Positions 56,662-57,447 of a stretch of DNA of 64,000 nucleotides are shown here, piece after piece; the first letter of the stretch is position 1, and each line of letters starts with the position of its first letter. The stretch lies in assembly GCA_019694475.1 (NCBI GenBank), contig JAIBBX010000007.1, positions 9,225 to 73,224 on the forward strand. Direction: 5' to 3'. This DNA comes from Parachlamydiales bacterium (GTDB lineage Bacteria > Chlamydiota > Chlamydiia > Chlamydiales > SM23-39). Under the pieces are notes generated by a model. The model saw only the letters and a program-made list of their open reading frames with translations, ran no database searches and was not told the DNA's origin. Made by a program: the position numbers and the translations under genes.

Positions 56662-57447
56662 ATGACTGTCTGGTATTTACCTTGCAATAAAATTGAAAAT
56701 GATTGGATTTGCGGAGTCTGCCGCGGCTCAGAGCAAACAGATGTTGTTGCTCATGAAGGAAGCGGAGAAAAACATCCGATTCATAAATCATGCCTCTTGC
56801 GCTGGCGCAGATACTCAAACTTATGTCCGAATTGTAAAGTGGAAACGATCACCGAACAGATCTTTCCAAGGCTTGAGAAATTCGAGCAGCAATTATATCG
56901 ATTCTGCACAAGAAAGAATTGGCAGCTTTTGGTGACAGGGCTGGGAAGCATCCTTTCTTTGACAGCTTGCGTCTCAAAGCTTCCAGGTGTTGCGGGATTA
57001 GGTTTTGCTCTTCAATCAATTGGGGTTCACGAAGCTCTCATCGATGAGGCGCCGCGGACTGAAGTCGTTCGTCAAATCGATGCTCTTTGCAAAGAGATTT
57101 TGAGCCGCTATAGTGCTGAAAAATTGACGCTGCTTGATCGGCTGGCTAGATCTTCTTCAAAATATCGGAATCTTCTTTTGCCTTGGATTGAAATGGAGGA
57201 TTGCAAAATGAGGCTTTTCGGAGTGAAGAATCTCCGAGATGCTGTAGAAAAAGATCTGTTGATCAATCGTGTTTTGCGTATTTATCGGAATGCGACCGGG
57301 ATTGCAGCTCTTTTGATTGCGGGCAAATACTGCCCGCGAATATTTACTCAGGGGATGCTATCAACGATTCTTTTACATTGTATTTGGGAATGGTCCAACC
57401 AGAACCATCCTGTTTCTGAAACAGAAGAAGAGTCACGCGATTCGTGA
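56662..57447 (+). CDS. Membrane protein with an N-terminal RING-H2-like zinc finger and an Inc-like bilobed hydrophobic domain
   Basis: GGAGG precedes GTG 56659 and ATG 56662. The finger reads CGVCRGSEQTDVVAHEGSGEKHPIHKSCLLRWRRYSNLCPNCK. The hydrophobic hairpin is WQLLVTGLGSILSLTACVSKLPGVAGLGFALQSIGV. Confidence 0.55.
   Translation: MTVWYLPCNKIENDWICGVCRGSEQTDVVAHEGSGEKHPIHKSCLLRWRRYSNLCPNCKVETITEQIFPRLEKFEQQLYRFCTRKNWQLLVTGLGSILSLTACVSKLPGVAGLGFALQSIGVHEALIDEAPRTEVVRQIDALCKEILSRYSAEKLTLLDRLARSSSKYRNLLLPWIEMEDCKMRLFGVKNLRDAVEKDLLINRVLRIYRNATGIAALLIAGKYCPRIFTQGMLSTILLHCIWEWSNQNHPVSETEEESRDS

Follow-up and report, generated by a model that had tools for sequence, protein, structure and literature searches.

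The present analysis deals with a 64-kb stretch of contig JAIBBX010000007.1 of a Parachlamydiales bacterium (hereafter the window, i.e., the whole stretch of DNA that was analysed) and, within it, with an open reading frame (ORF) whose product begins with a RING-H2-like zinc finger (hereafter the RING gene). This gene sits in an obligate-intracellular Chlamydiota genome: the LigA protein of the window is at most 82% identical to those of uncultured Chlamydiota/Chlamydiales metagenome-assembled genomes (MAGs) and 90% identical to that of contig L081. An earlier note on this DNA, made from the sequence alone, had placed the ORF at 56662-57447 and had read its product as a eukaryote-like RING-H2 finger fused to an inclusion-membrane-type hydrophobic hairpin; the ORF is real and its coordinates are right. 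It lies on the forward strand, encodes 261 amino acids, starts with the ATG at 56662 and has its stop codon at 57445-57447. A public protein collection holds an identical protein (P0001), and the full-length AlphaFold model has a mean pLDDT (predicted local distance difference test) of 87.4. The following features, given with the evidence on which they were placed, can be differentiated at the locus:

54514-56625, forward strand: glgB (glycogen branching enzyme), which is conserved and bounds a variable island on its left.
56653-56657, forward strand: GGAGG, a Shine-Dalgarno-like motif 4 nt upstream of the ATG (direct sequence reading).
56662-57447, forward strand: the RING ORF, with an N-terminal RING finger, a linker helix, a hydrophobic helical hairpin and a C-terminal helical domain (ORF list and sequence).
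56662-56709, forward strand: short N-terminal leader, residues 1-16, a candidate secretion signal (residue composition).
56710-56835, forward strand: RING domain, residues 17-58, with the predicted ligands C17, C20, H31, H38, H41, C44, C55 and C58 (alignment, profiles and AlphaFold).
56836-56919, forward strand: linker, residues 59-86, with a helix at residues 70-81, 'IFPRLEKFEQQLYRF' (AlphaFold helix).
56920-57027, forward strand: predicted hydrophobic helical hairpin, residues 87-122, made up of a lobe at 87-105, an SKLP turn and a lobe at 109-122 (Kyte-Doolittle and Wimley-White scales, AlphaFold).
57028-57405, forward strand: C-terminal helical domain, residues 123-248, including a second hydrophobic segment at 224-242 (alignment and AlphaFold).
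57344-57778, reverse strand: small convergent ORF, 144 amino acids from a conserved Met (comparison with contig L081).
57435-57458, forward strand: terminator-like hairpin across the stop codon of the RING ORF (sequence).
57918-59912, forward strand: ligA (NAD-dependent DNA ligase), likewise conserved, which bounds the variable island on its right.

The spacing C17-x2-C20-x17-H38-x2-H41-x2-C44-x10-C55-x2-C58 that the earlier note had read in the N-terminal part was recovered exactly, and residues 17-58 make up a RING-H2-like domain, which is expected to bind two zinc ions. An exhaustive HMMER scan of 1.84 billion representative proteins, with a threshold of E<=1e-3, was the sole search that recovered the family: it returned 109 relatives of the window protein, 99 of which share the eight-ligand pattern C-x2-C...H...H-x2-H-x2-C...C-x2-C. 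Nearly all these relatives have a length of 90-270 amino acids and carry the RING match at their extreme N-terminus. From these data, two alignments were used: A1, i.e., the window subfamily with 19 close homologues, and A2, which contains the RING segments of the 99 motif-bearing members. In a word-indexed homologue search, the protein query found itself only, A1 found three proteins and A2 found two; in addition, NCBIfam gave no match to the window protein. Given its recurrence over so many relatives, the RING motif is far beyond chance.

Regarding the comparison with known RING fingers, the Pfam model zf-RING_2 (PF13639) matches the full window protein with E=1e-3 (19.8 bits) and its isolated RING domain with 25.7 bits, the gathering cut-off of this model being 27.3 bits. 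A match to a RING profile, on which the earlier note had made its reading depend, was therefore obtained, but under the gathering cut-off for the window protein; at the family level, by contrast, the matches are strong, since zf-RING_2 is matched by 90 of the 99 members at E<=0.01 (best value 1.3e-10), zf-rbx1 by 73 and RINGv by 59. The best matches in the PDB to the single window sequence are RING fingers (E=0.04-0.1). The A2 profile has ARK2C/RNF165 as its best PDB match (E=2.5e-9) and also matches the RING domains of gp78, HRD1, RCHY1 and RNF4, all of them, together with ARK2C/RNF165, within E=2.5e-9 to 1e-8; further PDB matches comprise Arkadia, EL5, KSHV K3 (1vyx, E=7.7e-6) and chains of Mdm2 (E~2e-4).

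The predicted structure points in the same direction. The AlphaFold model of the window RING segment (pLDDT 91.4) agrees with the RING fold, which is defined by a beta-hairpin, a central helix and two interleaved zinc sites, and the top 50 matches retrieved by Foldseek from the PDB are all RING domains, with TM scores of 0.55-0.74 (mostly >0.6) and root-mean-square deviations (rmsd) of 1.6-2.9 A for most of them; these matches include HRD1 (6a3z, rmsd 1.8 A), RNF165 (5d0i) and EL5 (1iym, TM 0.72). The structure prediction of the N-terminal domain that the earlier note had proposed thus came out in favour of a RING. Taken together, profiles and models make the homology to eukaryote-type RING-H2 fingers secure, though the window sequence itself misses the Pfam threshold.

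The third zinc ligand deserves a separate mention. The earlier note had assigned it to a Glu in the place of the expected Cys, which is wrong. The canonical Cys3 position of RING-H2 fingers aligns to E36/K37 in the window protein, a column in which family members differ (E, D, R, Q, I, K, N or H, among other residues), and none of the 99 motif-bearing members has a Cys between His31 and His38. Glu36 was therefore rejected as a zinc ligand: its position is variable, whereas His31 (in 'VAH') does not change among the 19 close homologues and occurs in 99/99 motif-bearing members. Apart from His31, the residues invariant in the close homologues are W15, C17, C20, H38, H41, C44, C55, C58 and G114. 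The loop between His31 and His38 has 3-16 residues across the family, most often 6, as in the window protein, and 'VVAH' and 'PIH' form two paired strands in the AlphaFold models. Because two ligands that sit at the base of a variable loop would be expected to behave in this way, His31 is likely the third ligand, and all eight positions would then be filled in a C2H3C3 arrangement: seven out of eight ligands are canonical, and ligand 3 lies six residues before ligand 4 instead of forming a Cys-x-His with it.

The surface through which RING-H2 fingers contact E2 enzymes is also present in the window protein, together with the linchpin residue. Four positions can be followed in the family: (i) an Ile or Val two residues past the first Cys (V19 in the window protein; 92/99 members); (ii) a Trp four residues past ligand 6 (W48; 80/99); (iii) a Pro after ligand 7 (P56; 91/99); and (iv) an Arg/Lys 'linchpin' after ligand 8 (K59; 74/99). 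On this conservation, the window RING is likely to be catalytically competent as an E3 ubiquitin ligase. To our knowledge, bacteria lack ubiquitin and, hence, the likely partner of this RING would be a host E2. The eukaryote-like RING-H2 finger proposed in the earlier note is in this way borne out by profile matches, predicted fold and conserved E2-contact residues.

On the basis of these searches, the window protein is a divergent member, belonging to a subfamily of ~19 clusters, of a larger unnamed Chlamydiota family with ~100 sequence clusters, whose common layout consists of an N-terminal RING, a conserved linker and a C-terminal hydrophobic domain. Where source names were checked, most members are unnamed or called 'hypothetical protein'. 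Besides the window protein, nine members have a known source name or context, and all of them are bacterial and fit Chlamydiota. P0009 (PIS02666.1) is a 'hypothetical protein [Chlamydiae bacterium ...]', and P0065 (MEI6242683.1) was automatically named 'RING-H2 finger protein [Chlamydiota bacterium]'; P0011 and P0027 have a single Chlamydiota MAG as their source; P0002 and P0010 occupy syntenic positions within the glgB-ligA gap of chlamydiae; P0046 adjoins two TLC ATP/ADP translocases; P0024 is accompanied by a tandem paralogue; and P0038 lies on a 56-kb bacterial contig with UbiA, DUF1207 and DUF3638 neighbours, which are not diagnostic of Chlamydiota.

Some further observations were made on the contigs that carry members of the family. 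In L083, two tandem RING-family paralogues are found at 10001-10597 and 10637-11248, both on the forward strand, which suggests local gene duplication within the family. In L088, P0038 (8001-8687, forward strand) directly adjoins a DUF3638 protein of >3160 amino acids (8692-16687, reverse strand). Two adjacent ORFs of ~385 amino acids in L019, at 11848-13005 and 12980-14128 on the reverse strand, give a weak match to the RING family profile (E=0.005-0.01) and may belong to a different chlamydial RING-like family.

Downstream of the RING domain, the hydrophobic string WQLLVTGLGSILSLTACVSKLPGVAGLGFALQSIGV corresponds to residues 87-122 and contains one charged residue, K106, within the 'SKLP' turn. 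A hydrophobic stretch after the RING is present as the earlier note had described, but it begins 28 residues past C58, not about 40, and is only marginally membrane-like: the Kyte-Doolittle (KD) means over 19 residues form a plateau of ~1.1-1.5 and peak at 1.66 for residues 89-107. According to the Wimley-White octanol scale, which is noisy for Gly/Ala-rich segments and serves here as a secondary indicator only, residues 87-105 score as insertable (+5.0), residues 107-125 are negative, and a second favourable segment occurs at residues 224-242 (+6.7). The full-length AlphaFold model has helices at residues 84-105, 108-148, 152-162, 166-176, 181-223 and 225-248, with pLDDT values of 93-98 over residues 90-220 and of 82-97 for the first two helices; in it, the second lobe of the hairpin is the start of a 41-residue helix belonging to a long helical bundle. 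The C-terminal domain (residues 123-248) is conserved in the 19 close homologues. The bundle had no sequence or fold relative in the PDB or BFVD: the whole-protein sequence profile gave no credible match in the PDB outside the RING, and Foldseek of the full-length model against PDB and viral structures returned non-specific long-helix matches only (E>=0.3).

The wider family presents a much more hydrophobic picture. In the hydrophobicity listing (110 proteins, one of them a later match), segments with KD>=1.6 occur in ~74 of the 91 members that lie outside the close subfamily, and many of these segments exceed 2. In distant members, the strong hydrophobic segments often span at least 40 residues and start ~25-30 residues after the RING (P0070, P0077, P0044 and P0038 are examples of strong Inc-like segments), and a 'SLF(S/P)WKE(K/R)' linker, related to that of the window protein, recurs in them. 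As far as hydrophobicity profiles can indicate, the hydrophobic domains of distant members look like classical Inc-type ones. From this distribution, the combination of a RING and a hydrophobic anchor is a family trait, which in the window subfamily is attenuated and joined to an additional helical domain. An Inc-type hairpin is, in consequence of this family context, plausible, and marginal for the window protein. In any case, type III-secreted membrane proteins have been reported to fall in an intermediate hydrophobicity range (PMC6110835), so the modest hydrophobicity of residues 87-122 neither excludes an anchor nor proves one.

With respect to the N-terminal leader, the first Cys is found at a median residue of 17 in 97 family members. 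Across these same members, residues 2-15 are Leu-poor and comprise 39% of Ser, Thr, Asn and Pro, versus 19% in the remaining protein, and no Sec-type hydrophobic signal was seen in their N-terminal composition. A leader so composed is compatible with an N-terminal signal of a non-Sec type. Chlamydiae generally possess type III systems; the 64-kb window contains no type III genes (two-partner secretion loci are present).

The genomic setting of the RING gene is that of a variable spot. In most of ~50 related genomes, the end of glgB lies within a few bases of the start of ligA and, because the two genes abut in most relatives, the 1.3 kb found between them in the window is to be read as an insertion. 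The RING gene is missing at this locus in most relatives, and other genes occupy the gap in some of them:

L004, 3957-7694: ankyrin-repeat proteins, one of them with a weak F-box match (E=0.008).
L001, 2532-7616: an AbiEii toxin with its likely antitoxin, and an internally duplicated glycosyltransferase.
L087, 1244-7674: two leucine-rich repeat (LRR) proteins, a RING homologue, a small convergent ORF and an Rce1-like protease gene.

The pair formed by the RING gene and the small convergent ORF recurs in the glgB-ligA gap of the window, L081, L002 and L087. The small ORF has a full extent of 57344-57838 on the reverse strand in the window (57344-57778 from the conserved Met), and its counterparts, all on the reverse strand and at the same position, are found at 6665-7072 in L081, 7507-7824 in L002 and 6714-7001 in L087, those of L002 and L087 being only weakly similar. 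In the window, the last 104 nt of the small ORF lie within the RING ORF, an overlap that amounts to 53 nt in L081; no Pfam model matches the small ORF. Judging from its recurrence, the small ORF is a conserved companion gene of the RING gene. Between the window and L081, the identity is 90% for LigA, 89% for GlgB, 41% for the RING protein and 57-59% for the small ORF; between the window and L002, the corresponding values are 82%, 79%, 24% and 40% (the latter for a 35-residue local match). By these pairwise values, the RING protein evolves far faster than its LigA and GlgB neighbours. The GC content of the insert is slightly under that of its flanks (0.43 vs 0.46). A mobile-element origin of the insert was considered and is unsupported, as the repeats at its borders, whether direct or inverted, did not exceed the size of chance matches.

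No E1, E2 or deubiquitinase genes were seen near the RING gene, and no RING paralogue was found in the 64-kb window. When ~1 Mb of chlamydial ligA-region loci was scanned, only the syntenic L002 copy of the RING gene turned up. Elsewhere in the window, two-partner secretion (TPS) loci and a glycosyltransferase gene were observed, all on the reverse strand:

1256-2113, reverse strand: DXD-motif glycosyltransferase, weakly like the catalytic glycosyltransferase domain of TcdA/TcdB (E=3.7e-7), which may be another host-directed enzyme.
2196-16260, reverse strand: two-partner secretion locus, with two ShlB/FhaC-type transporters (2196-3860 and 14518-16260), a TPS-domain exoprotein (3857-6295) and a 2737-aa ORF without Pfam match (6292-14505).
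34309-37164, reverse strand: two-partner secretion locus with a second TPS-domain protein, of 951 amino acids.

Considering all of the above, we regard the window protein, with confidence that is evenly balanced, as an E3 ubiquitin ligase of the RING type that an uncultured environmental chlamydia directs at its host, secreted and probably membrane-associated. The points in favour of a host-directed role are the Chlamydiota origin, the absence of E1, E2 and deubiquitinase genes among the neighbours, the fast divergence of the protein, and an island that holds ankyrin-repeat, weakly F-box-like and LRR proteins in relatives. Under such a scheme, (i) the leader rich in Ser, Thr, Asn and Pro (residues 1-16) would direct export, most likely via the chlamydial type III system; (ii) the hairpin at residues 87-122 would hold the protein on a host-facing membrane, the inclusion membrane being the leading candidate; (iii) a protein held in this way would expose its RING as well as its C-terminal helical domain to the host cytosol; (iv) the RING would recruit a host E2; and (v) the C-terminal domain would select substrates or drive oligomerisation. 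A more specific version, which extends to the whole family, can be put forward tentatively, as a possibility that falls short of an even chance: a large, hitherto undescribed, Chlamydiota-specific family of C2H3C3 RING E3 ligases inserted in the inclusion membrane via their C-terminal hydrophobic domain, the anchor of the window subfamily having been partly turned into a new helical substrate-binding module.

A number of observations weigh against a secreted, membrane-held ligase. Secretion, localisation and ligase activity are predictions, ligand 3 is non-canonical and its zinc geometry is likewise a prediction, and the window protein taken alone stays under the zf-RING_2 gathering score both at full length and as a domain. 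Type III export would require the RING, which folds around zinc and begins just 16 residues from the N-terminus, to remain unfolded. Furthermore, the hairpin is short (18 + 14 uncharged residues) and its second lobe, being Wimley-White-negative, fails on that scale; a KD of 1.6 is reached by 3 of the 19 close homologues, while the other 16 stay below this value, several peaking at ~1.0 (some maxima are 0.94-1.1); in close homologues, the turn is di- or tri-basic and the lobes have ~13-14 uncharged residues; polar residues are conserved inside lobe 2 (Q118, which is nearly invariant, and H122), where G114 is invariant; and residues 84-148, modelled as a confident helical bundle (pLDDT >93), could equally be soluble. 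Most of these traits of the hairpin, along with the long packed helices modelled for residues 84-248 (pLDDT 93-98), would suit a secreted soluble E3 ligase in which the 'hairpin' is the hydrophobic core or oligomerisation face of a novel substrate-binding helical bundle. This soluble reading is a serious rival, even if, taken on its own, we find it rather doubtful: residues 87-105 of the window protein are uncharged and score as insertable, the intermediate hydrophobicity is what would be expected of secreted membrane proteins and, above all, the RING is overwhelmingly followed in the wider family, at an equal distance, by C-terminal regions of strong hydrophobicity, which suggests that the hairpin descends from a membrane anchor.

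Two other explanations concern the function of the RING itself. It is improbable that the RING is non-catalytic and the protein a secreted decoy that captures E2 enzymes or RING partners of the host and prevents host ubiquitination (e.g., that of the inclusion); the unusual ligand 3 and its loop, and the fact that the R/K linchpin is kept by only 74/99 members, would fit a decoy, but the window protein keeps V19, W48, P56 and K59 and its sequence offers no argument against catalysis. Also considered was a bacterial housekeeping or inner-membrane protein, which we consider very improbable. Prok-RING_1 and Prok-RING_4 are matched weakly by 7/99 and 10/99 members, respectively (the window protein matches neither of them), the window protein has no recognisable, scorable secretion signal, and the hydrophobic segment could target the inner membrane; against this, eukaryotic RING-H2 models and structures are matched far more strongly and often, the E2-contact and linchpin residues are conserved, and a gene that is missing at its locus in most relatives and evolves very fast is atypical of housekeeping. 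Nor does the protein belong with the Prok-RING groups, as those profile matches are weak and bacterial E1, E2, JAB or vWA-type neighbours are absent (its neighbours are glgB, ligA and the small ORF). The host-directed, probably membrane-associated E3 ligase is, in consequence, the reading that we keep.

If the more specific, family-wide version were true, the chlamydial vacuole would bear on its surface a resident ubiquitin-writing activity, a counterpart to Cdu1, which is a membrane-anchored chlamydial deubiquitinase. With ~100 clusters in which a RING is combined with a hydrophobic anchor, such a family would represent a new class of candidate enzymes of the inclusion surface and offer a testable route by which environmental chlamydiae might rewrite host ubiquitin marks at the vacuole. 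In addition, a natural RING variant with a His as ligand 3 and a variable loop would be useful for structure-function work. Bacterial effectors of the U-box, NEL, HECT-like and F-box types, which mimic eukaryotic E3 ligases, are well known, as are chlamydial effectors of the F-box, BTB and deubiquitinase types, while zinc-binding RING domains are much rarer in bacteria. In chlamydiae, the only RING/U-box domains that we found reported are those of Neochlamydia NEX1b, where they are joined to LRRs; Domman et al. (2014, PMC4209131) saw no further ones among the chlamydial genomes of that time. The earlier note had been aware of no described RING-Inc fusion and our reading of the literature agrees, as no description of a RING-Inc or RING-hydrophobic family was found in it; prokaryotic RING-finger work (Burroughs et al. 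2011) may have noted members.

Among known systems, the eukaryotic RING-H2 ligases of the zf-RING_2/zf-rbx1 type (Arkadia/ARK2C-RNF165, gp78/AMFR, HRD1/synoviolin, RNF24, EL5) share with the window protein the fold, seven of the eight ligand positions, the spacing from ligand 4 on and the E2-contact residues (I/V, W, P and the R/K linchpin). But while these ligases have a Cys-x-His at ligands 3-4, the chlamydial family instead has His-x(3-16)-His, and the window protein is sub-threshold in Pfam and comes from a bacterial organism.

The RING of MDM2/MDMX, of the C2H2C4 type, has a His at ligand 3 and an extended spacing between ligands 3 and 4 ('IVHGKTGH'), which makes it a precedent for the chlamydial arrangement. 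A His as ligand 3 and a longer loop to the His of ligand 4 are common to both, as can be seen by comparing 'VVAHEGSGEKH' in the window protein with the MDM2 letters, and the family profile aligns the His of 'VAH' to that of the MDM2 'IVH'. They differ in ligand 5 (His in the window protein, Cys in MDM2), in the C-terminal dimerisation tail, which the window protein lacks, and in the rest of their architecture.

MARCH and viral K3-K5 proteins (RING-CH), as well as RNF5/RNF185, consist of an N-terminal RING, a linker and a two-helix hydrophobic anchor, with both ends in the cytosol. The window protein resembles them in the succession of a short N-terminal RING, a linker and a hydrophobic hairpin; it departs from them in its ligands (predicted as C2H3C3, not C4HC3), in a much less hydrophobic hairpin and in having no likeness to them outside the RING.

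With chlamydial Inc proteins, the window protein has in common that it comes from a chlamydia, that its N-terminus is short and polar, and that long helices follow a hydrophobic stretch of two predicted lobes. It has ~36 marginally hydrophobic residues instead of the usual two lobes of ~20 residues, and a RING upstream; no paper was found that describes an Inc protein with a RING. Finally, Neochlamydia NEX1b (Domman et al. 2014, PMC4209131) has, like the window protein, an N-terminal RING/U-box-type domain and both are read as effectors of the host ubiquitin system, but NEX1b carries leucine-rich repeats in place of a hydrophobic domain and of the helical domain of the window protein.

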